Source of the DNA: a virus
Lineage: Duplodnaviria > Caudoviricetes
Virus record (IMG/VR): IMGVR_UViG_3300030330_004956
Span: 64,001-128,000 of that record
Direction: 5' to 3' (one strand)
Length of the DNA: 64,000 bases
Shown here: in pieces, positions 27,113 to 63,269 of the stretch
Layout of the letters: every line of letters begins with the position of its first letter
How positions within the stretch are numbered: position 1 is the first letter of the stretch
Notes under the pieces: model-generated
What the model saw: only the letters and a program-made list of their open reading frames with translations
What the model was told of the DNA's origin: nothing
Database searches by the model: none
Position numbers and translations under genes: made by a program

Positions 27113-27634
27113 ATGTCAAAATTCAAAACAGTTTTATTAGATCCGCCATGGAACGAACGTGGCGGTGGCAAGATAAAGAGAGGCGCCGACAAGCACTATG
27201 AATTGCTTAAAACGCCTGATATCATTAGAGTCATTCTTCAATCAGAATGCTGGAATGAATTAGAAGACAACGCGCACATGTACTTGTGGGCTACTAACAA
27301 CCACCTAGAAGATGCTTTGTATGTGATGAAGTCATTAGGATTTCGATATGTAACAAACATTGTGTGGGTAAAAGACAGAATTGGGCTTGGGCAATATGCT
27401 AGAGGCAAGCATGAACTTTTATTGTTTGGCACCAGAGGCACTAAGCATACCACAGTTAAAAAAGAAAACAACACTTTAGCTTCTGTTATCGAAGCAAAGC
27501 GTGATAAGCATTCTAAGAAGCCAGAAGCTTCATTTGAATGGATTGAAAATAGATCTCACGGGCCGTACCTAGAAATGTTCTCCAGAGACGAAAGAGAAGG
27601 ATGGACAGTTTGGGGAAAAGAAGTGAATAAATAA
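27113..27634 (+). CDS. MT-A70 family N6-adenine methyltransferase
   Basis: DPPW, YLWAT, GFRYVTNIVWVK, GLGQYARGKHE, HSKKP, LEMFSR..REGWTVWG. Confidence 0.9.
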   Translation: MSKFKTVLLDPPWNERGGGKIKRGADKHYELLKTPDIIRVILQSECWNELEDNAHMYLWATNNHLEDALYVMKSLGFRYVTNIVWVKDRIGLGQYARGKHELLLFGTRGTKHTTVKKENNTLASVIEAKRDKHSKKPEASFEWIENRSHGPYLEMFSRDEREGWTVWGKEVNK

Positions 27635-27649
27635 GCGTCGTCAGACGTA
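27624..27649 (+). promoter_or_regulatory. ECF-like promoter TGAATA-N16-CGTA
   Basis: One of 15 copies with conserved spacing. Confidence 0.8.
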
Positions 27650-27679
27650 TTAATAATAACCATAAAAAAGGAGTAAACA

Positions 27680-27952
27680 ATGGGGAATATTAAATATTAT
27701 CGTGGAACTTTCACGAAAGCAAATGGTGAACTTCGGACTATGTTTTTTGTCCGAGCAGGCGATCTGCCTGATACGTTTATCACAACCAACACAAAGGGTA
27801 CTGGGCGTACTCGCAATCTCAAGGAAGGTTTGGAGACTGTTTGGGATCTTCAAAGTAAGTCTTGGCGTACTTTCAACTGGCGAACTTCTAATCCAGAGGA
27901 AACCACTATTTTTGAAGCAGACGAAAATATTCTGAATAATTTTGGAAACTGA
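27680..27952 (+). CDS. WYL_2/SH3-like (DUF2693-like) protein
   Basis: FTKANGELRTM...VWDLQSKSWRTF. Confidence 0.7.
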   Translation: MGNIKYYRGTFTKANGELRTMFFVRAGDLPDTFITTNTKGTGRTRNLKEGLETVWDLQSKSWRTFNWRTSNPEETTIFEADENILNNFGN

Positions 27953-27958
27953 GACGTA
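27933..27958 (+). promoter_or_regulatory. ECF-like promoter TGAATA-N16-CGTA (SSB)
   Basis: Motif copy. Confidence 0.8.
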
Positions 27959-28031
27959 CTATGGATAGCGGCAAAGCAGATCAGCTTTGTTGACTATAGA
28001 CAACAGTCAAATAACAATAAGGAGAAATATT

Positions 28032-28790
28032 ATGGCTATTGATTTTGCAAAAATGAAAGCGAAACTTGATGCACTTCAAGGTAACGGCTCTTCCAAGAGT
28101 AATATCTTTTGGAAACCGCAGGACGGTGATCAAACTGTTCGAATTGTTCCAACAGCGGATGGAGATCCGTTTAAGGAAATGTGGTTCCACTACAATGTAG
28201 GTAAGAACCCCGGCTTCCTTTGCCCCAAGAAGAATCACGGAGACGATTGCGCTGTGTGTAACTTTGCGTGGCATATCATGAAGGAGGCAAAGCAAAATGA
28301 TGATGCAGAAACTTTGAAACTTTCAAAGTCACTGCTTCCGAAGCAACGCTTCTTCTCGCCAGTGGTAGTACGCGGCGAAGAGGAATCTGGCACCCGACTT
28401 TGGGGATATGGAAAGATGGCGTATCAGGAACTTATTCAATTGGTTCTTAATCCAGACTATGGCGATATCACTGATGTTGATGGCGGTACTGATCTTGTTA
28501 TCAACTATGGTAAGCCTCCCGGCGCCTCTTTCCCAGTGACGAAGATTCATCCTCGTCGCCGCCCATCTGCCCTTGCAGAGTCTAAGGAAGATGTTCAGAA
28601 TTTCTTGGATGGCATTCCATCTTTCAAGGAAAACTTCAATGTCAAGTCTAGCACTGAGATTGAGGAAATGCTTTCCAACTTCCTTTCGGGAGAATCTACC
28701 GACGATTCCGGAGGATCAGAGACTACGAAGTATCAAAACAACGAAACCTCTGATGTAGATGAAGCATTCAAAGAGTTGCTAGGAAATTAG
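28032..28790 (+). CDS. ssDNA-binding protein, T4 gp32-like
   Basis: FWKP..G..TVRIVP; H..CP....DCAVC zinc site; YGDITD..GTDL; acidic tail. Confidence 0.85.
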   Translation: MAIDFAKMKAKLDALQGNGSSKSNIFWKPQDGDQTVRIVPTADGDPFKEMWFHYNVGKNPGFLCPKKNHGDDCAVCNFAWHIMKEAKQNDDAETLKLSKSLLPKQRFFSPVVVRGEEESGTRLWGYGKMAYQELIQLVLNPDYGDITDVDGGTDLVINYGKPPGASFPVTKIHPRRRPSALAESKEDVQNFLDGIPSFKENFNVKSSTEIEEMLSNFLSGESTDDSGGSETTKYQNNETSDVDEAFKELLGN

Positions 28791-28857
28791 ACATAATGTT
28801 CTAAACCGCAGGTAGGCATGGGTTACAGATGCCTTATTTTTCAAACAAAGGTGACAA

Positions 28858-29994: not shown

Positions 29995-30022
29995 TATAAA
30001 AGTCTCCTTTGTTTGTTTGGTT

Positions 30023-30054
30023 AACTCCCGCCATTAATTTGGCGGGAGTTTTTT
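30023..30054 (+). terminator. Intrinsic terminator
   Basis: AACTCCCGCCA-TTAATT-TGGCGGGAGTT-TTTT. Confidence 0.85.
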
Positions 30055-30079
30055 GAATAAACAAGGTGTGTTGATCGTA
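30054..30079 (+). promoter_or_regulatory. ECF-like promoter TGAATA-N16-CGTA
   Basis: Motif copy fused to the terminator T tract. Confidence 0.8.
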
Positions 30080-30098
30080 TAATATTTCAGAGGGACTT

Positions 30099-31070
30099 AT
30101 GAAAAAAATATTGATTATTGATGCATTGAACATGTTTTTTCGATGCTATGCTAGGGATCCTAGTATTAATTTACAAGGGCATCCATCTGGAGGTTGCGTA
30201 GGCTTTTTAAAGAGCTTACAAAAGTCTATTCGTCTTACAAAGCCAGATGATGTTGTGATAGTTTGGGACGGCGGTGGAGGCTCACGAAAGCGCCGCCTCA
30301 TAAACAAAGACTACAAATCAGGAAGAAAGGTGGTTCATTTACCAAAAGATATGAACTACAATTTTACACACGAAGAAGAGGCATCTAACAAGGCATGGCA
30401 GCAAACTAGATTGTTTGAATATTTAGATAATTTGCCAATTTGTCAGTTTATGTATGAAGACGTCGAAGCAGATGATGTCATCGCCGCGATTACTCAATCA
30501 AAAGTTCTCAAAGATTGGCATAAGGTGATCTTATCAAATGATAAAGACTTCATGCAATTGTGTGACGATAAGACGATTTTGTGCCGCCCTGCGAAGAAGC
30601 CATGGGAAATATTAAACACAAATAGGATTGTAGAAGATCTAAATGTTCATCCCATCAACATGGCACTCGCCAGAGCAATTGTGGGGGATAAATCTGATAA
30701 TTTGCCGGGAGTCCCTAATGTCGGCTTCGGTAGGGTAAATAAATTTTTCCCTTTCTTAAAAGATGAGGACGAGTACAGCGTTAAGGATCTAATTAAAATA
30801 ACCGAAGAGTTGGCTACCGAAAACAACAGCAAGTTTCTTACATCAATTCTAGAACACGAAAGTGTCATTGAAGAGAACTACAGGATAATGCAACTATATC
30901 AGCCATCACTTTCGTACCAAAGGAGAAATGCAGTAGAAAACTGCTTAGATGACAGAGAAAAACACTTTAATATGACTAATTTTAGACTTTTGTTAGCAGA
31001 AGATGGGTTTATGTCTTTAAGGTGGGACACGATGGAGCAATGTATGAAAAGAATTATTAATTTTGAATAA
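30099..31070 (+). CDS. 5'-3' exonuclease / flap endonuclease (T4 RNase H-like)
   Basis: IIDALN, VWDG, YKSGR, EADD, SNDKDFMQL, GDKSDNLPGV. Confidence 0.92.
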   Translation: MKKILIIDALNMFFRCYARDPSINLQGHPSGGCVGFLKSLQKSIRLTKPDDVVIVWDGGGGSRKRRLINKDYKSGRKVVHLPKDMNYNFTHEEEASNKAWQQTRLFEYLDNLPICQFMYEDVEADDVIAAITQSKVLKDWHKVILSNDKDFMQLCDDKTILCRPAKKPWEILNTNRIVEDLNVHPINMALARAIVGDKSDNLPGVPNVGFGRVNKFFPFLKDEDEYSVKDLIKITEELATENNSKFLTSILEHESVIEENYRIMQLYQPSLSYQRRNAVENCLDDREKHFNMTNFRLLLAEDGFMSLRWDTMEQCMKRIINFE

Positions 31071-31089
31071 AAAAGGACAAACAAGCGTA
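31064..31089 (+). promoter_or_regulatory. ECF-like promoter TGAATA-N16-CGTA (helicase)
   Basis: Motif copy overlapping a GAA-TAA stop. Confidence 0.8.
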
Positions 31090-31109
31090 TTACTAAAGCG
31101 GGAGGGAAT

Positions 31110-32474
31110 ATGAACATGAGAAAGTCTAATGAAGATTTCTCTAGGTTTGGCAAGCACTTTCAAGAATCAATGGTACAGTTGATGTTGGAAGATCGAGCCT
31201 ATTGCGATCAAATCACTGAAGTGCTAGACGTCAGCTTTTTTGAGTTGTCGTACCTACAAGTTTTTGTGGGCAAGTTGCTAGATTACAGAAAGAAATATAA
31301 AGTACACCCAACTTACAAAGCAATGATCACAATTTTGCGCACTGAGTTGGAATCTGAGAATGAAGCATTGCAGATGCAAGTGAAGGACTTTTTCTCTAGA
31401 ATTCATACGGCTGAAATTACCGATCGTGAGTTCATAAAAGATACCAGTCTAGATTTCTGCCGAAAACAAAAGTTGAAAGCAGCCCTTATGAAGACAATTG
31501 GGCTCATGAAGTCTTCTTCGTATGATGAAATAAGCAAGGTTATTAACGATGCCCTAACTTTGGGCATGGGCAATGAGGCAGGGTACGAATACCTTACAGA
31601 CTTCGAAGAAAGATATCAATTAAAAGCCCGCAATCCACAAACTACGGGCTGGGATGAGATTGACAGTATTACCGCCGGCGGACTTGGGCAAAGCGAGCTA
31701 GGAGTCGTTGTCGCCCCTACTGGTGCTGGTAAATCAATGGTTTTGACTTGTCTTGGGGCGAAAGCGATACAACAAGGAAAAACAGTGGTGCATTATACAT
31801 TCGAATTATGTGATAAAGTCATTGGCAGACGCTATGATTCTTGTATCACACAAATTCCATTGGGTGATTTGAACAGTTTTAAGGAACAAGTTTACGAAGA
31901 AATTAGTGAATTAACTGGTTCGCTTATAATTAAAGAATACCCCACAAAGTCTGCATCAACTCAGACTTTGAAAACCCACCTAGAGAAACTTAAGAAAAGA
32001 GGCGTTGAACCCGATATGATCATTGTAGACTACGCCGATTTGCTCAAACCAGTAAACATGACAAGGGAGAAAAGACATGATTTGGAAAATATTTATGAAG
32101 AACTACGAGGCATTGCGCAAGAAAATGAATGTCCATTATGGACGGCATCACAAACGAATCGTTCTGGACTCAACGCTGAAGTAGTGACTATGGAAGCTAT
32201 TTCAGAAGCTTTTAACAAGTGCTTTGTGGCAGACTTTATTTGCTCAGTTTCTAGGACTGCCCAAGACAAAGTAAACAATACAGGCAGAATGTTTGTAGCA
32301 AAAAACAGAAACGGGCCGGATGGTATGGTATATCCGCTAGTTATTGACTGGAAAAATGTCAAGATGCAGGTTTTACCAGAATCATCAGAAACCATGCTAG
32401 AGATCGAAGAGAAATCTTTGTCAGAACACAAAGCAGACTTATACAAGAGATACAAGAACAACAAGGAGAAATGA
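31110..32474 (+). CDS. dnaB: Replicative DnaB-like helicase
   Basis: TGW..D...GG, APTGAGKS, IVDYADL, WTASQTNR, KNRNG. Confidence 0.92.
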   Translation: MNMRKSNEDFSRFGKHFQESMVQLMLEDRAYCDQITEVLDVSFFELSYLQVFVGKLLDYRKKYKVHPTYKAMITILRTELESENEALQMQVKDFFSRIHTAEITDREFIKDTSLDFCRKQKLKAALMKTIGLMKSSSYDEISKVINDALTLGMGNEAGYEYLTDFEERYQLKARNPQTTGWDEIDSITAGGLGQSELGVVVAPTGAGKSMVLTCLGAKAIQQGKTVVHYTFELCDKVIGRRYDSCITQIPLGDLNSFKEQVYEEISELTGSLIIKEYPTKSASTQTLKTHLEKLKKRGVEPDMIIVDYADLLKPVNMTREKRHDLENIYEELRGIAQENECPLWTASQTNRSGLNAEVVTMEAISEAFNKCFVADFICSVSRTAQDKVNNTGRMFVAKNRNGPDGMVYPLVIDWKNVKMQVLPESSETMLEIEEKSLSEHKADLYKRYKNNKEK

Positions 32475-32478: not shown

Positions 32479-34338
32479 ATGGAAGTCTCAAACAAAATTT
32501 TATCAGATATTACGGTACACATGAAGTACGCTAGGTACCTAGAAAACAAACAGCGCCGAGAGAACTGGACAGAACTTGTCACTAGAAATATGGAAATGCA
32601 TATTAAGAAATATCCTCAACTAGAGGGTGAAATCAGGGAAAACTATAAGTTTATCTTTGATAAGAAAATATTGCCATCAATGCGCTCAATGCAATTTGCT
32701 GGTAAGCCAATTGAGGTTTCTCCGAATCGTATCTTTAATTGTGCATATATGCCAATGGACGATTTGCGTTCATTTTCAGAGGCTATGTTTCTTTTACTTG
32801 GTGGCACCGGTGTAGGATTTTCTGTTCAGCAGCACCATGTCGATAAACTTCCAGAGATTCACAAGCCCAATGCTAGCCGCACCCGTCGTTTTTTGATTAG
32901 CGACTCTATAGAGGGATGGGCAGACGCAGTGAAGGCACTAATCATGTCTTATTTCAAAGGTACTTCCAAGTTACGTTTTGACTTTTCAGATATCCGTGCA
33001 AAAGGAGCCAAACTGGTAACATCTGGCGGTAAAGCCCCCGGCCCACAGCCTCTGCGAGAGTGCTTGGTGAAAGTGGAGGGTATTTTACAGCAGAAAGAAG
33101 ATGGCGAAAAGCTTTCTACAATTGAGGTTCACGATATGGTTTGCCACATTGCCGATGCTGTTCTGGCGGGTGGTATCCGCCGCGCCGCTCTGATTTCTCT
33201 GTTTTCAGCCGATGATATGGAAATGATATCAGCAAAATCAGGAAAATGGTGGGAGCAAAACCCACAACGTGGACGAGCGAATAATTCAGTAGTGCTTCTT
33301 AGACACCGAATCGAAAGAGACTTTTTCATGAACTTGTGGGAGCGTGTCAAAGCCTCCGGAGCAGGCGAACCCGGCTTTTACTTCTCAAATGACAAAGATT
33401 GGGGCACCAACCCGTGCTGTGAAATCGCACTTCGCCCATATCAATTCTGCAACCTTACTGAAGTCAACGTTTCCGATATCACAACACAAGAAGAATACGA
33501 GAATAGAGTCCGTGCCGCTGCCTTTTTAGGCACTTTGCAGGCTGGTTATACTGATTTTCACTATTTACGCCCTGTTTGGCAGCGTCACACCGAAAAAGAT
33601 GCTCTAGTTGGAGTCTCCATGACAGGAATTGCGTCTGGTGGCGTTCTGGCTCTTGATATGAGGGCAGGGGCAAAAATTGTTAAAGAAGAGAATGCTAGAG
33701 TAGCAGATATTATCGGCATTAACGCAGCCGCACGAACAACTTGCGTAAAACCCGCAGGAACCACCTCTTTAACGCTTGGAACTTCCAGCGGAATCCACGC
33801 ATGGCACAATGATTACTATATTCGCAGAATTAGGGTGGGCAAGAATGAATCGATTTATAACTACCTAGCAGAAAACCACCCAGAGTTGGTTGAAGATGAA
33901 TTCTTCTCACCACACGACACCGCAGTTATTTCGGCTCCACAAAAGTCTCCAGCAAACGCAATTACAAGATCTGAAACTGCAATTGACTTATTAGAGAGAG
34001 TCAAGAAAGTAAGTTCAGAGTGGGTTAAGGGCGGACATGGAAAGGGGCAGAATACACATAACGTTTCTGCTACCATTACAATCAAGCCTGATGAGTGGGA
34101 AACTGTAGGTGAATGGATGTGGGAAAACCGCAAACACTACAATGGATTATCGGTATTGCCATATAGCGAGCACAGCTACAAACAGGCACCTTTTGAGGAT
34201 TGTGACGAAGAAACTTATGAAAATATGCTAAAAAGTTTAAAAAGCGTTAATTTGGAACTAATTAATGAGGAAGAAGATAACACAGATCTGAAAGGCGAGA
34301 TAGCATGTGCAGGTGGAGCTTGTGAATTGCCATTTTGA
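32479..34338 (+). CDS. nrdJ: Class II (B12-dependent) ribonucleotide reductase, RTPR type
   Basis: FNC, GTGVGFS, AGGIRRAA, GEPG, TNPCCEI, CNLTE, KPAGT, YKQAPFE, C-terminal CAGGAC. Confidence 0.9.
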   Translation: MEVSNKILSDITVHMKYARYLENKQRRENWTELVTRNMEMHIKKYPQLEGEIRENYKFIFDKKILPSMRSMQFAGKPIEVSPNRIFNCAYMPMDDLRSFSEAMFLLLGGTGVGFSVQQHHVDKLPEIHKPNASRTRRFLISDSIEGWADAVKALIMSYFKGTSKLRFDFSDIRAKGAKLVTSGGKAPGPQPLRECLVKVEGILQQKEDGEKLSTIEVHDMVCHIADAVLAGGIRRAALISLFSADDMEMISAKSGKWWEQNPQRGRANNSVVLLRHRIERDFFMNLWERVKASGAGEPGFYFSNDKDWGTNPCCEIALRPYQFCNLTEVNVSDITTQEEYENRVRAAAFLGTLQAGYTDFHYLRPVWQRHTEKDALVGVSMTGIASGGVLALDMRAGAKIVKEENARVADIIGINAAARTTCVKPAGTTSLTLGTSSGIHAWHNDYYIRRIRVGKNESIYNYLAENHPELVEDEFFSPHDTAVISAPQKSPANAITRSETAIDLLERVKKVSSEWVKGGHGKGQNTHNVSATITIKPDEWETVGEWMWENRKHYNGLSVLPYSEHSYKQAPFEDCDEETYENMLKSLKSVNLELINEEEDNTDLKGEIACAGGACELPF

Positions 34339-34360
34339 ATAATTTAGACTTTCAGTCGTA
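34336..34360 (+). promoter_or_regulatory. ECF-like promoter TGAATA-N15-CGTA
   Basis: Motif copy using the nrdJ TGA stop. Confidence 0.75.
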
Positions 34361-34381: not shown

Positions 34382-35239
34382 ATGAAAAAACTTTTTGAAA
34401 ACTGGAGAAAATATGTTCTAGTTGAAATGTCAACACCATTGACGAAATATCGAAGACTAATGGGTATGTTCCAAGGTGATGTGGAAAGTGTGGATCAGGT
34501 TGTCATGATGACACCAGAAAATCCACACGCTCGTTCTACGTCTGATGAGATCAACGCTAAACGAACAGAGCTTTTCAGAGAAGATATGAAAACTGCTGGG
34601 TATGGGTACCGCCCTGTTGAGGGTATGTACGGCGGCCCAGAAGACTCTTATGCAATCCCACATATGTCTAGAGAAGATGCTGCAAGGTATTCTTATAAGT
34701 ATGGGCAAGAGTCCTTTGTGTATTCTGTTCGTCAAGAGGGCGCCGATGCCAAGATGATTCACGAAATGGTTATGATTGACTACGCAGGAGCCCAACAGGA
34801 TGGCAGATATCCTCCAGAATTGTTCGGAGAGATTTACATCATGCCAGAGTCAGTTAATACGACAATTGATGCAGAAACCACAGAAATGCTGAACAGTCAA
34901 GATTTGGCTAGCGCAGAGGATTATTATTCTAATATTCCCGGCGCACCAGAGAGGGGTAGGCTGTCAATGGACTTCTACGGAGGAAAGCCTGTGGACAAGG
35001 GGCAGCAAGTCGGCGCTCCGGCAAATCCCAGATATGTTCGGGAAAGCACCTATATTGCGATCAGAGAGTCAGACGTACCATCTACTACAGAGGCACAAGC
35101 ACTGGCTAAAAAGATCAAGGATCGTAGTAGCAAGATAAACGAAAGCGATCGCCTTGGATCTTCAAAATATCATCATAGAAAGATGATGCTAGCAGAGAAG
35201 CAAGAATTGTTGAATATCATTAAAGAATTGGAGGAATAG
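34382..35239 (+). CDS. ENWR-leader protein with DUF3293-like domain
   Basis: MKKLFENWRKYVLVE; MTPENP..N..R...G.Y...EDSY...KYGQES. Confidence 0.55.
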   Translation: MKKLFENWRKYVLVEMSTPLTKYRRLMGMFQGDVESVDQVVMMTPENPHARSTSDEINAKRTELFREDMKTAGYGYRPVEGMYGGPEDSYAIPHMSREDAARYSYKYGQESFVYSVRQEGADAKMIHEMVMIDYAGAQQDGRYPPELFGEIYIMPESVNTTIDAETTEMLNSQDLASAEDYYSNIPGAPERGRLSMDFYGGKPVDKGQQVGAPANPRYVRESTYIAIRESDVPSTTEAQALAKKIKDRSSKINESDRLGSSKYHHRKMMLAEKQELLNIIKELEE

Positions 35240-40500: not shown

Positions 40501-40525
40501 TGAATAATATAGCCCTTCAGTCGTA
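40501..40525 (+). promoter_or_regulatory. ECF-like promoter TGAATA-N15-CGTA (dnaE)
   Basis: Motif copy. Confidence 0.8.
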
Positions 40526-44020: not shown

Positions 44021-44185
44021 ATGAAAAAGATTAAATTTCGTCCTTGGGGTGCTAGCAAGGAGTCAGCACAAGAGGGTTACTTGGTATCAGAAACAGATGC
44101 TAAATTTATTGTCACCACTGGTAGGGTAGGCATTGAAATGCATTTTCCAAAATCAATGTACCAGTTTGAATATGTTGATGAATAA
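44021..44185 (+). CDS. Small hypothetical protein (54 aa)
   Basis: Not in the ORF track: MKKIKFRPWG...YVDE*; fills the intergenic gap. Confidence 0.55.
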   Translation: MKKIKFRPWGASKESAQEGYLVSETDAKFIVTTGRVGIEMHFPKSMYQFEYVDE

Positions 44186-44204
44186 AACTACAATGCCATT
44201 CGTA
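44179..44204 (+). promoter_or_regulatory. ECF-like promoter TGAATA-N16-CGTA
   Basis: Motif copy overlapping a GAA-TAA stop. Confidence 0.8.
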
Positions 44205-44222: not shown

Positions 44223-44426
44223 ATGGATATAGAGATAGCAAGAGAAAAACTTAAAGAAATGTGTCAGATTGAAGAAAGGCTTTTTGCCATGATGACAGAT
44301 AACAAATTGATCTTGCACGAAGAAGATCTGAAAATCATAACAAAAAAGATTTTTGAAGTATCATCAATGATATTGCAACTTACTGCAATAGTTGAAGAAG
44401 CAAAAAAGAGAGGAAACGATGAATGA
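44223..44426 (+). CDS. Small helical hypothetical protein
   Basis: ORF directly after a promoter. Confidence 0.55.
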   Translation: MDIEIAREKLKEMCQIEERLFAMMTDNKLILHEEDLKIITKKIFEVSSMILQLTAIVEEAKKRGNDE

Positions 44427-48538: not shown

Positions 48539-48564
48539 CGAATAATTTGCATAACATAGACGTA
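48539..48564 (+). promoter_or_regulatory. ECF-like promoter CGAATA-N16-CGTA (clpP)
   Basis: Motif copy with one mismatch. Confidence 0.7.
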
Positions 48565-48568
48565 TTAT

Positions 48569-48601
48569 AAGGGCAAACTTTTATAAGTTTTGCCCTTTTT
48601 T
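48569..48601 (+). terminator. Terminator-like hairpin
   Basis: AAGGGCAAA...TTTGCCCTT plus T run. Confidence 0.6.
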
Positions 48602-48619
48602 ATTCATAAAGGAGTTTAA

Positions 48620-50284: not shown

Positions 50285-51735
50285 AAAATTTAGAACATTG
50301 GAAAATGATGCTTGAGGCTTTGAACAATCTGCAAGAAAGGGTTGAAATGAGTGAACCCGTACAAACTGATACCGATAATCCAGAAAACACTGGCAAGTAT
50401 TTCTTGCCGACAATTAAAATTACAGAGGATTGGGGCAGGATCGGATCGAAAGACAGGCAGATCATTGAGAAGTTCACAAGAAACATTGGTGGCACCACAC
50501 TAGCCGAAAAAATTGCAAACATTAATAGTGTTATCACCGACAGAGAAGCAACTACAATTCCAAAAATTCTAGGTTCTATGGTAGTTATCGAGATTCTTAA
50601 TGCCGTGCTCAGAGAGTTTACAGAGTCAGCCGGCGGCTTCATCTTTGAAGGCTTCTTGGCTGGACTGTTCGGTGGCGAAGCTGTGCAGATTACAGATGTT
50701 GGCGATCAGGCAGCAGCAGGCGAGGCAACAGAGGCAGCAGGAAAACCAATCACGGACGTTGTACTAGGCGGCAGAGAGTATTCATTGAAGTTGCTTGGGC
50801 AGACTACGGCAGTGAAAGGCTCATTCAAGAATATGGTTGAGCACTTCCGCGTCAAAGATCATATTGTCTATCTCGATGCAAGACGCACACAGGCAGACGG
50901 AGAGCTTAGTGGCTTAGAGTTTGGAGAGTTCACCATCACCAGAGAAAACTTCATGCAAGTATTCATGGATCCATTCTTGAAAGATGTTACAGCAAAATCA
51001 TCCGAGCCCATTGAGTCAGCAAGTGCATTGAGAACTGCTATGCAAAAACTAGAAACCACAAACAATCCTTTGAAAAAATTAGCATGGACTGGCGGCTGGA
51101 AGCCCGAAGGCGCCACTAGAAGTGTTGGTACGAGCATACAGTATGGAAAGCCAAGGGGCGCCCCAGAGGGTGAACTAAACGAGAAAATATATTATGGTGA
51201 AGACTTTGCCACTGCAATACAGTCTTTCATGAACATGACAGATGAAGAACTGGACAGATATGCACCCTTTACTCTTTCTTGGGCGGACAAGAAGTTCGAA
51301 GGAACAAAAGCAGAAAAACTGTTTGGAAGTTTTACACTAGCATCCGCAATCAAAGATGCAAGTGAATCAGGTGATACCACAAAGCTTTTTGAACTATTGG
51401 AGACAACCCCGGGCTATACTGAATCACTACAGTTTGACTTTACAAGAGGACAAGCAGAATCAATTGTTAACTTTGAAGAGATTGGGACTCTCAACATCAG
51501 TGAGGGTACCTTGAAGGATACATGGCTAGCATATGGGGAAGTACTATCGCAAACCGTTGAGCCAATTTACAAATCTCTTAATGAGTTTACAGAGAACATC
51601 AACTCTTTCCTTACCGAAGAACAAAATCAAGACGGTAACAGAAAACAGTATGGCTTGGCTGCTGGCACCAGCGCCAAAGATCTAAAAACCGCAACAGACA
51701 AGGCAGTGCAAGATATGACTGCCGATGCTGAATAA
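50281..51735 (+). CDS. Leader-bearing protein with PD-(D/E)xK-like nuclease motif
   Basis: MKNLEHWKMMLE; GFIFEGFLAGLFGG...ITDV...YSLKL. Confidence 0.45.
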   Translation: MKNLEHWKMMLEALNNLQERVEMSEPVQTDTDNPENTGKYFLPTIKITEDWGRIGSKDRQIIEKFTRNIGGTTLAEKIANINSVITDREATTIPKILGSMVVIEILNAVLREFTESAGGFIFEGFLAGLFGGEAVQITDVGDQAAAGEATEAAGKPITDVVLGGREYSLKLLGQTTAVKGSFKNMVEHFRVKDHIVYLDARRTQADGELSGLEFGEFTITRENFMQVFMDPFLKDVTAKSSEPIESASALRTAMQKLETTNNPLKKLAWTGGWKPEGATRSVGTSIQYGKPRGAPEGELNEKIYYGEDFATAIQSFMNMTDEELDRYAPFTLSWADKKFEGTKAEKLFGSFTLASAIKDASESGDTTKLFELLETTPGYTESLQFDFTRGQAESIVNFEEIGTLNISEGTLKDTWLAYGEVLSQTVEPIYKSLNEFTENINSFLTEEQNQDGNRKQYGLAAGTSAKDLKTATDKAVQDMTADAE

Positions 51736-51754
51736 AAATAACATGTCAATCGTA
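51729..51754 (+). promoter_or_regulatory. ECF-like promoter TGAATA-N16-CGTA (groEL)
   Basis: Motif copy overlapping a GAA-TAA stop. Confidence 0.8.
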
Positions 51755-55659: not shown

Positions 55660-55684
55660 TGAATAATATTATTATCCATTCGTA
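55660..55684 (+). promoter_or_regulatory. ECF-like promoter TGAATA-N15-CGTA (tRNA-Leu)
   Basis: Motif copy ending 12 nt before the tRNA. Confidence 0.8.
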
Positions 55685-55696: not shown

Positions 55697-55782
55697 GCTC
55701 CGGTGGTGAAATAGGTAAACACACGAGACTTAAAATCTCGCGCCCTTTGGGCTTGCCGGTTCGATTCCGGCTCGGAGTACCA
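55697..55782 (+). tRNA. tRNA-Leu(TAA)
   Basis: GCTCCGG/TCGGAGT acceptor; CGAGA-CT-TAA-AA-TCTCG; long variable arm; A73; CCA encoded. Confidence 0.95.
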
Positions 55783-56331: not shown

Positions 56332-56357
56332 TGAATAAAAGTGTGAGAGTAGTCGTA
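56332..56357 (+). promoter_or_regulatory. ECF-like promoter TGAATA-N16-CGTA (uvsE)
   Basis: Motif copy. Confidence 0.8.
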
Positions 56358-56379: not shown

Positions 56380-57294
56380 ATGACAATCAATCTAGGATAT
56401 GCATGTATCAACATGGAACTTCAAAAACAAAAGGTTTGCTCCAACAGGGGCATGATCAAGCGTACATTCAAAGCTAAGGGCATTCCCTATGCATCGGAGT
56501 TGGCACTCATCAATGTCAAGGCAATGCGCCGTATCATTCAGTGGAACAACGACAACAACATCAACGTATATCGTATGACTTCGTGTCTGTTCCCTTGGTT
56601 CTCAGAGTATGATATCTTTGATCTTCCAGACATTGACGAGATTGCAGAAGTCATGGCTGACGCTGGCAAGATTGCAATGGATGCCGGACAACGTTTATCG
56701 TTTCACCCCGGCCCATTCAACTGCCTAGGCTCGCACAAAGACGAGGTTGTGCAAAAGACTATTCACGAACTCAACGCACACTCAGAGCAGATGGATCTTA
56801 TGGGGCTACCTAGTAGCCCTATGGCTAAGATCAACATTCACATCGGTGGTGCATATGGAGAGCATGACAAGACTATGGCACGTTTCTGCAAGAACTTCGA
56901 TCGCCTCGCTCCGTCAACACAGGATAGGCTTACAGTGGAGAATGATGACAGGGCATCCCTGTTCTCAACCAAGATGTTGTATCACGGAGTATCGCGACAC
57001 ATTGACATACCTATTGTGTTTGACTCGCATCATCATGAGTTGGGCAAGCAAGATGCTACATACCGCGAGGCTTTCTATATGGCTAGAGAGACTTGGCAAC
57101 GTCGCAATGCAAAGCAACAGTGTCACCACTCCAACTCCAAAAAAGACTACGAGGACAGCACTGTCAAAGTCACAGCACATTCTGACTGGTACTATACTCC
57201 ATTCGAGAACTTTGATGAAGAAGTTGATGTGGTACTGGAGTGTAAAAAGAAAGAGCAGGCTCTAATTAAGTATAGGCAAGACTTCGGGGTTTAG
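56380..57294 (+). CDS. uvsE: UV-damage endonuclease
   Basis: LGYACIN, YRMTS, RLSFHPG, NIHIGG, VENDD, VFDSHHH, AHSD, LECK.KE. Confidence 0.93.
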   Translation: MTINLGYACINMELQKQKVCSNRGMIKRTFKAKGIPYASELALINVKAMRRIIQWNNDNNINVYRMTSCLFPWFSEYDIFDLPDIDEIAEVMADAGKIAMDAGQRLSFHPGPFNCLGSHKDEVVQKTIHELNAHSEQMDLMGLPSSPMAKINIHIGGAYGEHDKTMARFCKNFDRLAPSTQDRLTVENDDRASLFSTKMLYHGVSRHIDIPIVFDSHHHELGKQDATYREAFYMARETWQRRNAKQQCHHSNSKKDYEDSTVKVTAHSDWYYTPFENFDEEVDVVLECKKKEQALIKYRQDFGV

Positions 57295-57511: not shown

Positions 57512-57513
57512 TT

Positions 57514-57572: not shown

Positions 57573-57912
57573 GGGGGCGTAATGGCTTCGACAGGGTAGA
57601 ACTCGGAGGACAAGTGCAAGTAGGATTGAGCATCCTTGATCGTTCAAAAACAATAGTTGCAAATAACAACAATCACTTTGACTCTGTTCGCCTAGCGGCT
57701 TAGTCAGGTGGCTGTCTGGAGCCATCTATCCAATCTAGACTTTAGCAGTGGGATCTGCCAAGAAATAATTGTCCCACCTGTCCAATACTCGATCACGGAG
57801 TGGCTAAATTACAGTGATTATCCTGTTAATCGGAGAAATGATTAACTATGCTTGTGAATGACTTTAATCTTGGCTACTGTGGACGGGGGTTCGACTCCCC
57901 CCGCCTCCACCA
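57573..57912 (+). ncRNA. ssrA: tmRNA
   Basis: GGGGGCG/CGCCTCC-A-CCA acceptor with G3:U; TTCGAC near the 5' end; T-arm GGGGG-TTCGACT-CCCCC; tag ANNNNHFDSVRLAA* at 57659-57703. Confidence 0.95.
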
Positions 57913-57925
57913 TCTTTGAAATTGC

Positions 57926-58023
57926 TGGGGAGTGGCGGAATTGGCAGACGCACCTGACTGTTTCTCAGGCGGTGATCAGGCGATAAGCCCACCTTGGAGG
58001 TTCGAATCCTTCCTCTCCAGCCA
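57926..58023 (+). tRNA. Atypical class II-shaped tRNA, anticodon GTT, 26-nt variable arm
   Basis: TGGGGAG/CTCTCCA-G-CCA; Leu-like D arm; CCTGA-CT-GTT-TC-TCAGG; T-arm GGAGG-TTCGAAT-CCTTC. Confidence 0.8.
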
Positions 58024-58027
58024 TTTA

Positions 58028-58104
58028 GGGCACTTAGTTCAGTTGGTTAGAGCACCCCGCTCATAACGGGATAGTCCTCGGTTCAAGTCCGAGAGTGCCC
58101 ACCA
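58028..58104 (+). tRNA. tRNA with CAT anticodon, probably Ile2 (lysidine type); Met not excluded
   Basis: GGGCACT/AGTGCCC-A-CCA; CT-CAT-AA loop; lacks the initiator C1:A72 mismatch. Confidence 0.85.
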
Positions 58105-58122
58105 TTTATAAAAGGAGAGAGA

Positions 58123-58293
58123 ATGATTGACTATACTATTATGGAATACGATATCGAAACTAGAAAATACACACCGATCGGAATTGCTGAAGGCATTGAT
58201 GGAAAACATGCCAAAAGGAATTATATAAAGAGACACGGCTGGAATGAACGTGAAGGTGTACATCTATTTGCAAAGCCGCCGCTTTGTAGATAA
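58123..58293 (+). CDS. Small hypothetical protein inside the tRNA cluster (56 aa)
   Basis: AGGAG RBS; MIDYTIMEYD...KPPLCR*. Confidence 0.55.
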   Translation: MIDYTIMEYDIETRKYTPIGIAEGIDGKHAKRNYIKRHGWNEREGVHLFAKPPLCR

Positions 58294-58300
58294 CAAACAA

Positions 58301-58374
58301 TGCCCCTTAGCTCAGATGGTTAGAGCAGCGGACTGTTAATCCGCGTGTCCTCGGTTCAAGTCCGAGAGGGGCAG
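58301..58374 (+). tRNA. tRNA-Asn(GTT), canonical, CCA not encoded
   Basis: TGCCCCT/AGGGGCA-G; GCGGA-CT-GTT-AA-TCCGC. Confidence 0.93.
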
Positions 58375-58377
58375 CAT

Positions 58378-58453
58378 GGGTTGTTAGCTCAATAGGTAGA
58401 GCATCGGGCTTTTAACCCGCAGGTTCCGAGTTCGAGTCTCGGACAACCCACCA
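58378..58453 (+). tRNA. tRNA-Lys(TTT)
   Basis: GGGTTGT/ACAACCC-A-CCA; CT-TTT-AA loop. Confidence 0.93.
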
Positions 58454-58457: not shown

Positions 58458-58490
58458 TGAATAAAACATATCTTTGAATCGTACTATTTA
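58458..58490 (+). promoter_or_regulatory. Tandem ECF-like (58458-58483) and CTATTTA (58484-58490) promoters
   Basis: The two motifs abut before the TlpA-like gene. Confidence 0.7.
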
Positions 58491-58506: not shown

Positions 58507-58977
58507 ATGAGAAGTATTTTATTTATGTTGGCTCTGGCTTGTGTAACCCCACCAGCCGCCGCAAACAGTTCTTTTTTGACTAGAGATATAAACGGAAAAG
58601 TTGTAAATCTAGACGAACACAAAGACGAAATAGTTATGCTAAACTTTTGGGCTACTTGGTGCGCCCCATGCAAAGTTGAAATGCCGCAACTACAAAAGCT
58701 AAAAGAAAAGTATGGTGACAAACTAACGATTGTTTCCGTCAGTGTTGACGAAGCAAGAGATAAAAGCAAAATCAAGCCTCTCATAAGAAGAGGTAACTAT
58801 GATTTTATTGTGGTGCATGATGACGATAGGAGCATAATGTCTTTCTACAATCCGTCAATGGATCTGCCGTATAATGTGATCATGGGTTACGGGGGAGATA
58901 TAGTTTGGCAGGGCGCAGGCTATTCACCGGGGAAAGAAAAGGTTTTTGAAAAGATTATTGATAGTATTATCAAATGA
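58507..58977 (+). CDS. TlpA/thioredoxin-like disulfide reductase, exported
   Basis: LNFWATWCAPC..EMP; N-terminal signal/lipobox LALAC. Confidence 0.9.
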   Translation: MRSILFMLALACVTPPAAANSSFLTRDINGKVVNLDEHKDEIVMLNFWATWCAPCKVEMPQLQKLKEKYGDKLTIVSVSVDEARDKSKIKPLIRRGNYDFIVVHDDDRSIMSFYNPSMDLPYNVIMGYGGDIVWQGAGYSPGKEKVFEKIIDSIIK

Positions 58978-58981: not shown

Positions 58982-59009
58982 TTGACATCAGAGATCTGGT
59001 GTCTATAAT
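58982..59009 (+). promoter_or_regulatory. Sigma70-consensus promoter TTGACA-N16-TATAAT
   Basis: Both hexamers perfect; upstream of the Hsp20 gene. Confidence 0.75.
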
Positions 59010-59073
59010 AAAGTAAGATCGCTCATTTGAGGATCTTCAAAGTCATACTTTGCTTAATAAGGAGGATATAAAT

Positions 59074-59499
59074 ATGACACAACTACAACTAGCAATCCCA
59101 TCACTAATGGGTAGAAACGTATGGAGTGATTTCTTCGACGATTTCTTATCAAATCCGACGAAAGTCGTAAAACAAACTACAACAGGCTATCCAGTCACAG
59201 ACATTTTCAGAGACGTAGAAGAAAATCAAGTTATCGAAATGGCACTGGCTGGGTTTACAAAAGAGTCAATCACTGTCGAAACACAATCTAATCAGATTAC
59301 GATTAGATCAGAGGGCATCGAAAATCGTCCCTCGGATAATCATGGCGGTATTGCACGCAGAGCCTTCAAGAAAACTTTCATTGATTATAACAATGAGTTA
59401 GAACTTTCCGATGCAAAAGTAACTTTTGTACAAGGATTGTTGCGCGTTGTTATTCCGATGAAAGAGGCGGCATACCCTAGGCAGATAACGATTGAATAA
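59074..59499 (+). CDS. Small heat-shock protein (Hsp20/IbpA-like)
   Basis: GYPVTDI, IEMALAGF, GGIARRAF, GLLRV, RQITIE. Confidence 0.9.
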   Translation: MTQLQLAIPSLMGRNVWSDFFDDFLSNPTKVVKQTTTGYPVTDIFRDVEENQVIEMALAGFTKESITVETQSNQITIRSEGIENRPSDNHGGIARRAFKKTFIDYNNELELSDAKVTFVQGLLRVVIPMKEAAYPRQITIE

Positions 59500-59518
59500 A
59501 AACAGTAGTTCAATCGTA
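59493..59518 (+). promoter_or_regulatory. ECF-like promoter TGAATA-N16-CGTA
   Basis: Motif copy overlapping a GAA-TAA stop. Confidence 0.8.
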
Positions 59519-59533
59519 CTATAACTATGGTAA

Positions 59534-59568: not shown

Positions 59569-59590
59569 CTATGCCAAGGAGGCACATTAT

Positions 59591-60043
59591 ATGAATAAAA
59601 GAAAATGGTACAACTATGTCTTTGAAACACAGGACGATACATATAAGCAAAAGCTCTACAAAGTGCCCATGCGATTCAAAGTAAGAAAAAAGGATGGCGG
59701 GAACAAGTCCGAAACAGAGGACGATTTACGGGCAGTGCCTCAAATAACAGCACTTTCTCTTCCTAGAGATAGGAAGTCAGACAGTGAGAGTTGGTATATG
59801 ACTTACGATTTAAAATTTGCATTACCGATAGGTGGCTCACCGCAAGATCATGTTAGGAATGACATGGTGCCAGCGGTAAACGCCGTCAAGGGATTGGAAA
59901 TACTTTCTTATGGAGAGGCTTTTCAAGTGTATGACGCTCAGGACGATACAATAGGAGATCCCGATAAGGATCGCTCCAAGGTTTTTGGTGGCGATGACAG
60001 GAGGCAATCCAAGAGCGACACCGACATAGAGGGAGGGGAGTAA
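59591..60043 (+). CDS. Hypothetical protein, probable late/virion
   Basis: MNKRKWYNYVFE leader; late-type promoter. Confidence 0.55.
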   Translation: MNKRKWYNYVFETQDDTYKQKLYKVPMRFKVRKKDGGNKSETEDDLRAVPQITALSLPRDRKSDSESWYMTYDLKFALPIGGSPQDHVRNDMVPAVNAVKGLEILSYGEAFQVYDAQDDTIGDPDKDRSKVFGGDDRRQSKSDTDIEGGE

Positions 60044-61135: not shown

Positions 61136-61140
61136 TTATA

Positions 61141-61893: not shown

Positions 61894-62134
61894 AGAGAAA
61901 CACCTAAAAGATTTACCAATACAAAAGCAATTACGAAAGATAAAAGAACAAAGAGAAAAGTTTCAAGTGCTCATGGCATATAATGACTTGGTAGAAAGCA
62001 TGATAGAGACAGACAAGATGATAGAAGATATGCCAGAGGGGGAAGAGAAGCAGCAAAAATTAGAACAGCAAGAACTAGCGTGGGAGTTGATGATGGCTGA
62101 AGATATGATTTCATTGATAAAGATAGAGAATTGA
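61883..62134 (+). CDS. Small coiled-coil hypothetical protein
   Basis: AGGAG RBS. Confidence 0.55.
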   Translation: MMSREKHLKDLPIQKQLRKIKEQREKFQVLMAYNDLVESMIETDKMIEDMPEGEEKQQKLEQQELAWELMMAEDMISLIKIEN

Positions 62135-62135
62135 T

Positions 62136-62459
62136 ATGGCAGATTTTATAAGAGTAGGGATGCTAAATGCAGAGCAGCTTTTTTCTGACGGGAAGCTAGA
62201 GAAAGGTACTCTTGTAAAATATAGGGCTCAAACCCACACTATGACAACGTATACTCATTCCACGATGACTCCAAAAGATTATTACTGGCAATATGGAATA
62301 ATCTCTGAAGTTCTCTGGTACGCTCGGACGCCAAGGATAGGAACCGTTTACACTACAGACTATCCCATAGTATATGACTTGACAGTACACAACATTCAAG
62401 AGGGAAAGAAAGACTTTTTAGACTTCAACAACTTTGAAATCATGATTTTAGTTGAATAA
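62136..62459 (+). CDS. Hypothetical protein (KGTLV, SH3-like)
   Basis: Coupled ORF ending GAA-TAA. Confidence 0.5.
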   Translation: MADFIRVGMLNAEQLFSDGKLEKGTLVKYRAQTHTMTTYTHSTMTPKDYYWQYGIISEVLWYARTPRIGTVYTTDYPIVYDLTVHNIQEGKKDFLDFNNFEIMILVE

Positions 62460-62478
62460 AAGTGCCCGCTGGTTCGTA
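62453..62478 (+). promoter_or_regulatory. ECF-like promoter TGAATA-N16-CGTA
   Basis: Motif copy overlapping a GAA-TAA stop. Confidence 0.8.
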
Positions 62479-62512
62479 TTATGTATATGATTTCTTACAC
62501 ACGGGAGGAAAA

Positions 62513-63238
62513 ATGAGTGTTGTTGACGGTATTCTATCAACAATGCGAACTAAAAAGTTTGCATTGGAAGTTTTGTCCATGGTTGAAGAGGTGGCAGGAC
62601 ACCACTTCTATTCTTTGTACCACTTGGGCGGCGCTAATACTATCCGAGAATGGGGCGAGTTGGCAGAAGATGATCCTTCACAGCGCACCTCTCAGATCAC
62701 CGTGCGTATCTGTCACGACTTTGAGTATGCAATCGCCAAAGTCCTAAAAGATAAGTATGGATACGAGATTGTTCCAAAGTCAGGGACAAACGACATTGTA
62801 GGAAACTTTGATGTTGCTGTAAAGAGTGGGGAAACGATCCTCGCCTTTGAAGTAAAGACTACTCAGGCGAAAGACTGGACAGGCTCAACGCATAGTCATA
62901 ACTGTGGCAAGGTTCCATTCTACGCCCTTATACAATACGACTTGGACTTGGACATACCCTTGGGCAAAAACTCGCTTCACGGGCTGTTTAAGGCGTGCCA
63001 CTTCTCTGTTACCTCACCTCTTGGTGACGGCAGCGCAATCATTGAATGGAGTGGCAAAGCAACAAATAGCAACTCGCGCACCACTGGCAAAATCAGAAAA
63101 GGCAACGCAGAAAAGTATCAGCCTATGATTTGCTTGGGGCGTACTTCTATAATGCGCGCAAGAAAGTGGACTAAAATAATCAAAGAGGATCTGACGCCTT
63201 ACCGCGGTATCTTCGGCAATCCAAAGAAAATCAGATAA
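62513..63238 (+). CDS. PD-(D/E)xK restriction-endonuclease-like protein
   Basis: HDFE helix...FDVAV......AFEVKTT; ATG after GGAGG. Confidence 0.6.
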   Translation: MSVVDGILSTMRTKKFALEVLSMVEEVAGHHFYSLYHLGGANTIREWGELAEDDPSQRTSQITVRICHDFEYAIAKVLKDKYGYEIVPKSGTNDIVGNFDVAVKSGETILAFEVKTTQAKDWTGSTHSHNCGKVPFYALIQYDLDLDIPLGKNSLHGLFKACHFSVTSPLGDGSAIIEWSGKATNSNSRTTGKIRKGNAEKYQPMICLGRTSIMRARKWTKIIKEDLTPYRGIFGNPKKIR

Positions 63239-63243
63239 AAGTT

Positions 63244-63269
63244 TGAATAAAGAGCGATACTCAGTCGTA
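63244..63269 (+). promoter_or_regulatory. ECF-like promoter TGAATA-N16-CGTA
   Basis: Motif copy. Confidence 0.8.

Follow-up and report, generated by a model that had tools for sequence, protein, structure and literature searches.

The phages SPO1, phiEco32 and T4 (gp55) are known to encode sigma factors of their own that use private promoters. The sigma factors of SPO1 are highly divergent and not of the ECF type. SPO1 early genes keep host-type promoters, and gene 28 is located among these early genes. In this Bacillus phage, gp28 and gp33-34 form a sigma cascade (PMC13401047). In coliphage phiEco32, gp36 is a phage-encoded sigma factor for middle and late promoters (PMC12276001). PeSL (promoter-early stem-loops) cassettes have been described in the T4-type phages RB49 and phi1 (PMC2839356). 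On the cellular side, promoters of B. subtilis sigma-W (ECF01) have the form TGAAAC-N16-CGTA (PMC5758882, PMC6713349), and both the CGTA/CGTC logic and a homopolymer tract proximal to the -35 box are documented for the ECF sigmas of this bacterium (PMC5758882).

Here we describe a two-box motif, TGAATA-N15/16-CGTA, in an uncultured marine far-T4-like phage. Compared with SigW promoters, the two-box geometry is identical. The 16-nt spacer, the CGTA -10 box with CGTC tolerated, the homopolymer tract beside the -35 box and a motif copy at the sigma gene itself are all shared. However, the -35 box is TGAATA instead of TGAAAC, no RsiW-type anti-sigma gene was recognised beside the sigma gene, and the motif would serve a viral early/middle programme rather than envelope stress. 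PhiEco32 is likewise a lytic phage with a small two-domain sigma, in which host sigma70 transcribes the early genes before the phage sigma redirects core polymerase to private promoters. It differs in being a podovirus in which the promoters of gp36 have AATGTA, at -11.5, at their centre and depend on the co-factor gp79; gp36 ranked only 42nd among the fold matches of our phage sigma, and the private class here also covers small early-type genes. With the PeSL phages our phage shares a T4-like genome, a hyperplastic region and a near-identical putative promoter at nearly every small ORF, and with T4 a separate gp55-type late class. In contrast to the motif, PeSL promoters are sigma70-like. The -35 box here is also often the stop codon of the preceding gene, and most copies have no evident stem-loop partner. 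SPO1 is similar in its order of host sigma, phage sigma and late factor and in being a large lytic myovirus; its non-ECF sigmas and its host-type early promoters set it apart.

Results

Motif sites in the window

The window is the whole 64-kb stretch of DNA that was analysed, and the whole phage genome (G000) is 184,889 bp. We found 14 exact matches to TGAATA-N15/16-CGTA in the window, all on the + strand, whereas shuffles averaged 0.17 matches and never exceeded 2. A fifteenth site has CGAATA (Table 1). These fifteen copies had been listed by a sequence-only reading of the window, and its spacer tally, the TTA, TAA or CTA after CGTA and the location of every site 5' of a gene start were all confirmed. 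Pfam agreed with its labels WYL_2, SSB, exonuclease, helicase, clpP, groEL, tlpA and uvsE (as UvdE). Its dnaE label was supported by tblastn, and the tRNA-Leu after the 55660 site was recovered. The proteins after the 62453 and 63244 sites, where the label 'nuclease' had been used, had no Pfam match. That reading had seen no copy in the first 27 kb; there we found no strong copy, and the sole match was the weak variant at 26922.

The copy at 48539 is an uncertain member of the set because a hairpin and a T-run follow it. At the 58458 copy, the -10 box abuts a late-type CTATTTA box at 58484.

Table 1. Motif copies and a host-type promoter in the window.
Feature	Position	Strand	Context
N16 copy	27624..27649	+	31 nt 5' of WYL_2 gene (27680-27952; Pfam)
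N16 copy	27933..27958	+	before gp32-like SSB gene (28032-28790; Pfam)
N16 copy, CGTATAAT	30054..30079	+	before 5'-3' exonuclease gene (30099-31070; Pfam)
N16 copy	31064..31089	+	before DnaB-like helicase gene (31110-32474; Pfam); TAA is the exonuclease stop codon
N15 copy	34336..34360	+	before DUF3293 gene (34382-35239); TGA is the stop codon of RNR-like gene
N15 copy	40501..40525	+	before DnaE-like polymerase gene (40563-44018; tblastn support)
N16 copy	44179..44204	+	before small ORF, then N6/N4 DNA methylase gene (44419-45345)
CGAATA-N16-CGTA variant, PWM score 17.7	48539..48564	+	before clpP (48620-49378; Pfam ClpP)
N16 copy	51729..51754	+	before Cpn60/GroEL (51774-53363; Pfam); TAA is the stop codon of the preceding gene
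N15 copy	55660..55684	+	13 nt before tRNA-Leu(TAA) at 55697-55782; non-coding target
N16 copy	56332..56357	+	before UvdE (56380-57294; Pfam), then tmRNA/tRNA cluster
N16 copy	58458..58483	+	before thioredoxin/TlpA-like gene (58507-58977; Pfam)
N16 copy	59493..59518	+	before 150-aa unknown gene (59591-60043); TAA is the hsp20 stop codon
N16 copy	62453..62478	+	before 241-aa gene, no Pfam match (62513-63238)
N16 copy	63244..63269	+	before 425-aa gene, no Pfam match (63308 onward, past window end)
Weak variant TAAATA-N16-CGTA, PWM score 17.2	26922..26947	+	within the 3' end of a gene; possible extra member
Host-type promoter TTGACA-N16-TATAAT	58982..59009	+	92 nt 5' of HSP20 gene (59074-59499)

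Copy number and anatomy of the motif

Across the whole genome, the exact motif occurred 41 times on the + strand and once on the - strand, and the reversed-pattern control gave no match. A PWM scan of the genome found 52 sites on the + strand and one on the - strand, compared with none in the shuffle. The density is highest at 128-147 kb of the genome, before small unknown genes; here nearly every small ORF has its own upstream copy. The sequence-only reading had described a 'replication and stress' regulon. With about 52 sites, the motif would instead mark a general early/middle promoter class.

The consensus is aaagtTTGAATAAAA-N8-cTCAaT-CGTA-TwAT. The spacer is 16 nt in 45 and 15 nt in 7 of the 52 PWM sites. 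An A-tract adjoins the -35 box, and the bases after CGTA extend to CGTA-T/C-W-A-T/C. A start codon preceded by a Shine-Dalgarno sequence lies 18-147 nt 3' of the motif in 46 of the 52 copies (median 31.5 nt), and TGAATAA supplies the stop codon of the preceding gene at 28 of them.

All copies of the genome, and those of five related lineages, share an invariant CGT core in the -10 box. A or C follows as the fourth base, and CGTA and CGTC were seen to swap between sites that are otherwise identical. Most ECF promoters are defined by AAC in the -35 box. All copies here have TGAATAAA as the -35 box, and this hallmark (GGAAC / TGAAAC) is missing. Of the ECF geometry proposed earlier, the CGTA -10 box and the 16-nt spacer stand, but the -35 box departs from it. 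The -10 region can also be read as a fair sigma70 hexamer (TAtwAT), which counts against an ECF reading.

A phage-encoded sigma factor

The sequence-only reading had suggested an ECF-like phage sigma encoded outside the window. We found such an ORF about 17 kb past the window end, at 144889-145410 of the genome. It encodes 173 aa and matches the Pfam families Sigma70_r2 with 37.0 bits (cut-off 24), Sigma70_r4_2 with 43.6 bits (cut-off 25.7) and TIGR02937 sigma70-ECF with 62.5 (cut-off 42.9). As in group 4 sigmas, which have about 170-200 aa, the protein is small and has no sigma-1.1 or sigma-3 domain. In its AF2 model, two helical domains (residues 5-77 and 109-170) are joined by a disordered linker of low confidence. 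The top 18 matches of this model in a Foldseek search of the PDB were all ECF sigmas, and so were 19 of 19 matches in a PDB sequence search. The best of these, and the nearest solved relative, was B. subtilis SigW (E = 4e-13). Judged from sequence and predicted fold, the 173-aa protein is an ECF-type (group 4) sigma factor.

The protein scored below every named NCBIfam ECF equivalog cut-off, with SigY best (86 vs 194 bits). It is also far below the SigW cut-off (46 vs 243), so that NCBIfam assigns it to no named ECF group such as SigY/ECF31 or SigW/ECF01. A pattern scan of 185,579 species genomes found no close cellular homologue. Pattern searches of IMG/VR with the single protein or with an alignment found no relatives, which were obtained instead from the protein database and by way of neighbouring genes. 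ECF sigma genes usually, though not always, have a cognate anti-sigma gene as a neighbour. No anti-sigma was recognised beside the sigma gene, where the only Pfam match among the neighbours was a 4HBT thioesterase.

In SigW, K170 reads the C of the -35 AAC (PMC6713349), and a Lys or Arg reads the G paired to this C in both SigW and SigE (PMC6713349). In the alignment, the K170 position is Met in every member of the phage sigma family and the R175 position is Gly, which fits a -35 box without AAC.

The leader of the sigma gene

A motif copy lies directly 5' of the sigma gene, at 144681 in our phage (a CGTC variant) and at L093:9802, L096:9804 and L098:5505 in relatives. A hairpin sits between the motif copy and the gene, which is flanked on both sides by conserved GGACA-N5-TGTCC hairpins. 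Database forms of the protein of 214-226 aa carry an apparent N-terminal extension of 50 aa with a conserved 'DIFCPLF'. We rejected this extension as a protein feature because it is the translated leader, namely the conserved GGACA...TGTCC hairpin and a T-run.

Should almost the entire early gene set depend on the phage sigma, the first molecules of this sigma would have to be made in another way. Several relatives have a candidate host-type promoter, TTGCAT-N17-TGtTATATT, before the sigma gene. It is conserved as a block, is degenerate in our phage, and is a moderate match no better than many chance sites. The hsp20 gene with its perfect sigma70 promoter was not found in the relatives G021, G001 and G002, and is therefore uninformative on how the sigma is launched.

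Motif and sigma in relatives

Of 36 compared loci that surround a shared AAA_5 gene, only 7 carried the motif, with 18-33 copies each on the + strand, and all 7 belong to one sub-clade with AAA_5 identity of at least 76%. The sigma gene was found on every motif-bearing contig of this sub-clade that reaches far enough. In the other 29 loci, where the motif had no copy, we saw TTGACW-N17-(TGn)TAnnnT promoters with a strand bias instead. Neither the motif nor a match to the sigma profile nor a Sigma70_r2/r4_2 domain occurred in eight relatives of 95-100% completeness. Canonical sigma70-type promoters precede the SSB, exonuclease, helicase and DnaE orthologues of one relative (G001). A lineage with a 37%-identical sigma keeps the core motif but prefers A over T just before CGTA. 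Relatives collected by MCP are mostly fragments without the early region, in which absence of the sigma is uninformative. Since motif and sigma co-occur within one clade only, the pairing amounts to a single evolutionary event, and a host switch could also be behind it.

Other promoter classes

The host-type promoter at 58982 is the sole perfect one in the genome, and we treat it as a contrast class showing the form of a host sigma70 promoter here. Matches to the sigma70 consensus do not exceed the background in the genome as a whole, and the early region is depleted of them. Virion genes are preceded by a second motif, CTATTTA, in agreement with the predicted gp55-like late sigma of the phage. 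A dyad search of the genome after masking gave no convincing third two-part class, leaving two promoter classes for two phage sigmas. One candidate, TTGAC-N16-ACGT, was rejected as its matches lie inside genes. Unlike T4, the genome has no MotA or AsiA: there was no MotA_activ match and only a spurious 14-bit match for AsiA. The T4 MotA box (TGCTTtA at -30) is absent from the motif. Terminator-like hairpins numbered 23, compared with 15.7 ± 3.9 in shuffles, and are unpaired with most motif copies.

Discussion

We consider that the sites are probably the early/middle promoters of the phage, read by host core RNA polymerase together with the phage-encoded ECF-type sigma. The motif, its bias in strand and position, the sigma gene and the joint occurrence of the two are observations; the reading factor, the start sites and the timing of the class are what we infer here. 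The sequence-only reading had offered hijack of a host stress sigma as its alternative, which now appears less likely. Such a host ECF sigma, with the phage sigma redundant or kept for other targets, would account for the ECF-like geometry and would solve the start-up, as it is there before infection. We regard it as unlikely, because the motif is missing in all relatives without the phage sigma and present in all with it, because the pattern scan of species genomes found no close homologue of this sigma, and because no other abundant target motif is left for it. A non-promoter role, in which the repeat is a signal for RNA processing, termination or recombination at gene junctions, would explain why the motif so often supplies a stop codon. 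It would also suit the identical motif copies seen in a relative, which suggest cassette duplication. To this we give very little weight: two conserved boxes with a free-sequence spacer of fixed length are the signature of sigma recognition and not of an RNA fold or recombination site, and copies of the motif are also found before a tRNA and before genes behind long intergenic gaps.

Host primary sigma70 might read the sites as strong early promoters, with the ECF sigma having some other, minor role. It could do so directly, with TTGAAT as -35 and TAtwAT as -10. In another form of this explanation, a phage activator would bind at TGAATAAA, comparable to the MotA/AsiA appropriation of T4. TTGAAT agrees with TTGACA at 4 of 6 positions, and the -10 region is similar to TATAAT. 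The array has the sigma gene at its end, as SPO1 has gene 28 among its early genes. In addition, host-read early regions of T4-type phages typically have dense arrays in which near-identical promoters stand before each small gene (PMC2839356). However, the distance from TTGAAT to TAtwAT is 19 nt, compared with 17 ± 1 for housekeeping sigma70. The CG before the hexamer is better conserved than the hexamer itself, the CGTC variants lack the A that is essential at -11, and C often replaces T at -7. The hosts of this group read canonical TTGACW-N17-TGnTAnnnT, as judged from the sister phages and the hsp20 gene. The activator form lacks a MotA or AsiA homologue, and both forms leave the ECF sigma without targets. 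Taken together, the two forms seem improbable to us.

If the phage sigma reads the sites, its sigma-4 domain would bind TTGAATAAA at about -35 and DNA melting by its sigma-2 domain would take place at the invariant CGT(A/C), about position -12, while a spacer of 16 nt, or rarely 15 nt, would set the geometry. The start of transcription would be some 8-10 nt past CGTA, near a conserved (A/G)TAACC, and a short CA-rich leader would run from there to the Shine-Dalgarno sequence and start codon. The first sigma molecules may come from the candidate host-type promoter of the sigma leader, after which the motif copy at the sigma gene would allow positive feedback. A gp55-like second sigma would then read CTATTTA as a -10-only box at the late virion genes. 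The result would be a three-step cascade from host to ECF to late sigma.

A broader scenario can be put forward, as a whole only tentatively. The sub-clade may have swapped its whole host-sigma70-dependent early/middle promoter set for a private ECF-type class, read by an acquired and fast-evolving sigma. Nearly all pre-late transcription would then be free of host sigma70, and the phage could thereby silence sigma70 globally. A lone, insulated sigma gene would launch the programme, with five invariant copies of GGACA-N5-TGTCC guarding it as a dedicated switch. A promoter whose -35 box overlaps a stop codon would double as a recombination joint for shuffling small gene cassettes.

Synthetic biology may find a use for the sigma/promoter pair, which is compact and probably orthogonal and comes with about 50 natural variants of the promoter. 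In marine virome annotation, the motif would be a simple marker of the early/middle genes of this clade. The sister phages, which share genes, keep host-type promoters and do not have the sigma, offer a natural comparison, so that the assignment of sigma to promoters is directly testable. If the assignment is true, this would be an ECF-type example of a phage sigma with private promoters in an abundant marine T4-like lineage, and it would mean that an entire early programme can be rewired through promoter replacement.

Distribution of the motif

The window contains 14 copies of the motif TGAATA-N15/16-CGTA, a predicted two-box ECF-type promoter. All are on the plus strand, and dinucleotide-preserving shuffles have a mean of 0.17. 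The sequence-only reading had listed a fifteenth site (CGAATA), which is present. The spacer lengths and the bases after CGTA are as it described, and the sites lie before gene starts as it claimed. Its observation is confirmed. Pfam supported the products it had named (WYL_2, gp32-like SSB, 5′-3′ exonuclease, DnaB-like helicase, ClpP, Cpn60, UvdE and thioredoxin/TlpA-like) and also a DNA methylase, tblastn upheld DnaE, and ARAGORN found the tRNA-Leu. The last two motif-preceded genes in the window, including the one labelled a nuclease, had no Pfam family match. The first tRNA-Asn called in the tmRNA cluster seems atypical, with a length of 98 nt.

The window spans bases 64,001–128,000 of the source IMG/VR record (G000), which is 184,889 bp and rated 98% complete. 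Its major capsid protein is closest to far-T4-type phages (36% identity to Microcystis Mel-JY01, 44% to Flavobacterium ‘immuto’ phages and 41% to Rhodothermus RM378). Nearly all genes are on the plus strand and have Shine-Dalgarno sites. In the whole genome the exact motif was found 41 times on the plus strand and once on the minus strand, with 0 for the reversed-pattern control. A position-weight scan gave 52 plus-strand sites, 1 minus-strand site and 0 in the shuffle. The same scan found zero sites in the baseplate/tail block (0–42 kb) and, bar one weak variant, zero in the head/tail block (49–91 kb). The sole minus-strand copy is kept at the equivalent place in G055, a more distant relative; transcription from it would run antisense into the 3′ end of a 907-aa gene.

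Coordinates of features in the window, in the whole record (G000) and in relatives
Feature	Reference	Position	Remark
Motif sites	G000	42–49 kb	three
Motif sites	G000	91–128 kb	within window; replication and accessory genes
Motif sites	G000	128–147 kb	one ahead of nearly each small ORF
Motif sites	G000	162–182 kb	a few
-35 box doubling as stop codon (examples)	window	31064, 34336, 51729, 59493, 62453	
CGAATA variant and hairpin	window	48539–48605	site at 48539; before clpP
Minus-strand motif copy	G000	161798–161823	PWM 23.9
Equivalent minus-strand copy	G055	40782–40807	
Motif pairs	G021	43166/43506, 46050/46524, 49998/51567	identical spacers
Motif copy before tRNA-Leu(TAA)	window	55660	tRNA 13 nt 3′ of motif
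tmRNA (tag ANNNNHFDSVRLAA), tRNA-Asn, tRNA-Met, tRNA-Asn, tRNA-Lys	window	57573–58453	ARAGORN
ECF-type sigma gene	G000	144889–145410	173 aa
Sigma leader	G000	144739–144888	
GGACA-N5-TGTCC palindromes	G000	143901–145428 (L138:15901–17428)	before the sigma promoters; twice in leader; 4 nt past stop codon
gp55-like ‘late sigma’	G000	2099–2803	phrog_234
CTATTTA	window	845, 2685, 7468, 7760, 10523, 13558, 15355, 37969, 40125, 47897, 58484, 59562	
CTATTTA	G000	14255, 37620, 39551, 57249	
hsp20 with TTGACA-N16-TATAAT	window	58982–59499	promoter at 58982

Anatomy of the predicted promoter

The consensus is aaagtT-TGAATAAA(a)-N8-c-T-C-A-a-T-CGTA-T-w-A-T. Of the 52 sites, 45 have a 16-nt spacer and the other 7 a 15-nt one. 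CGT is invariant, and the fourth base is A, or C in about 9 copies with the remainder of the site unaltered. Copies in the small-gene array also have a conserved (A/G)TAACC about 9 nt 3′ of CGTA. A start codon with a Shine-Dalgarno site follows 18–147 nt downstream (median 31.5) at 46/52 sites. At 28/52 sites the upstream gene's stop codon is TGA or TAA within TGAATAA (two frames). The -35 box thus supplies the stop codon, and gene end and next promoter are fused in one compact junction.

The ECF-type sigma factor and its locus

G000 encodes two sigma factors, one ECF-type and one gp55-like. The former matches the prediction of a phage ECF-like sigma factor outside the window. Its Sigma70_r2 and Sigma70_r4_2 domains are above Pfam cut-offs. 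The TIGR02937 ECF superfamily model accepts it, though its scores are far under the cut-off of every named equivalog (best SigY, 86 vs 194 bits). PDB matches of a 17-member family profile were ECF sigmas only (best B. subtilis SigW, E = 4e-13). In the AlphaFold model a disordered linker joins two helical domains, and each of the 18 best fold matches is an ECF sigma. In its defining features the protein conforms to group 4 sigmas, but it belongs to no named group. Database forms of 214–226 aa carry an N-terminal extension of about 50 codons, which we rejected as protein because this stretch is leader; its conserved ‘DIFCPLF’ is the translated hairpin and T-run, not a protein domain.

The sigma locus is unusual. 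Downstream of its motif copy lies a conserved hairpin, CGGACA-N5-TGTCCG, which has a T-run. In the related contigs L093, L096 and L098 and in G055, a conserved block like TTGCAT-N17-(TG)nTATATT comes after the hairpin, about 55–120 nt before the start codon. This block is a candidate promoter; it is a moderate match to the host type and is degenerate in G000. The genome has six GGACA-N5-TGTCC palindromes, of which five surround the sigma gene, and the stem sequence is invariant in the same four relatives. This arrangement suggests dedicated insulation or control; the palindromes may serve as a set of terminators, or as a protein- or RNA-binding operator controlling sigma expression. The variant before clpP has the same promoter-then-hairpin layout as the sigma leader, with a strong terminator-like hairpin (GGGCAAAC...GTTTTGCCC) and a T-run within 6 nt.

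Comparison with relatives

The sigma family is found in marine metagenomes at 50–99% identity. L093, L096 and L098, which carry it, have 15–21 motif copies, with one ahead of each small gene and ahead of the sigma gene. The more distant G021/G055 lineage has 44–49 copies and a sigma just 37% identical. The preferred base just before CGTA is T (or C) in lineages with related sigmas and A in this lineage, a small co-variation of base preference with sigma. Several G021 pairs lie a few hundred bases apart, which suggests recent duplication of promoter-plus-small-gene cassettes, as in PeSL-mediated shuffling.

We compared 36 loci centred on the shared AAA_5 gene. The motif is restricted to the 7 loci whose AAA_5 is at least 76% identical; the other 29 (47–61%) have zero copies and bear strand-biased canonical promoters, TTGACW-N17-(TGn)TAnnnT. 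Eight of these 29 relatives, 95–100% complete, have no motif, sigma-profile match or Sigma70_r2/r4_2 domain. In the relative G001, orthologues of SSB, exonuclease, helicase and DnaE have textbook sigma70 promoters at the exact places of TGAATA-N16-CGTA in G000. Hosts of this phage group therefore read canonical sigma70 promoters.

Which factor reads the motif

We consider it probable that the phage's own ECF-like sigma reads the motif. The comparative evidence is the strongest argument for a phage sigma: one sub-clade appears to have swapped canonical promoters for a new class and gained an ECF sigma at the same node. This association counts as one event because it is confined to a single clade, and a host shift could give the same picture. 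The geometry is the same as that of the sigma-W promoter, TGAAAC-N16-CGTA, and both CGTA/CGTC interchange and a homopolymer tract beside the -35 box are known for B. subtilis ECF sigmas (PMC5758882). These features favour an ECF reading.

That a hijacked host ECF sigma reads the motif is unlikely. Reading by a sigma70-based machinery is equally improbable. TTGAAT and TAtwAT can be picked out in the motif, but their spacing is 19 nt, CG is better conserved than the hexamer, and the CGTC variants lose A-11, with -7 frequently C. Neither MotA nor AsiA was found in G000. Judged from sequence, the phage promoter has the ECF features apart from AAC. K170 of SigW recognises the G that pairs with C-31, and R175 recognises G-35 (PMC6713349). 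All phage family members have Met and Gly at these positions in an ungapped HMMER alignment, a plausible structural counterpart of the missing AAC. If the phage sigma is the reader and nearly all early genes need it, the first sigma must come from something else. Possible sources are sigma protein brought in by the virion, weak recognition through host factors, and a host ECF sigma whose specificity is similar.

Probable late promoters and host-type promoters

CTATTTA is a second motif with a strand bias, with 40 copies on the plus strand and 4 on the minus strand. About 22 copies sit 23–60 nt before start codons, chiefly of virion genes, and it is kept in the distant relatives G001, G002 and G004. 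CTATTTA differs from T4's TATAAATA and is probably a -10-only late promoter for which the gp55-like sigma is the reader. With both motifs masked, no further two-part motif stands out in G000.

Matches to the sigma70 consensus in G000 are at background (plus 49, minus 39, shuffles about 44), and the early region has 28, compared with 40.6 ± 7.1 in shuffles. The single perfect TTGACA-N16-TATAAT in the genome lies ahead of a small heat-shock gene (HSP20), with a 60-nt leader. No HSP20 homologue was found in G021, G001 or G002. The gene may have been captured recently, together with a host promoter of its own.

Relation to known systems

The system would work like the phage sigma cascades of SPO1 and phiEco32 gp36 (PMC12276001), and the promoter array resembles the PeSL (promoter-early stem-loop) cassettes of RB49/phi1 (PMC2839356). 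Unlike these, G000, a T4-like phage, would pair an ECF-type sigma with a two-box promoter of ECF type, a class that spans early as well as middle genes. The clean natural contrast between sister phages that carry the sigma and those that lack it makes the sigma assignment easy to test.
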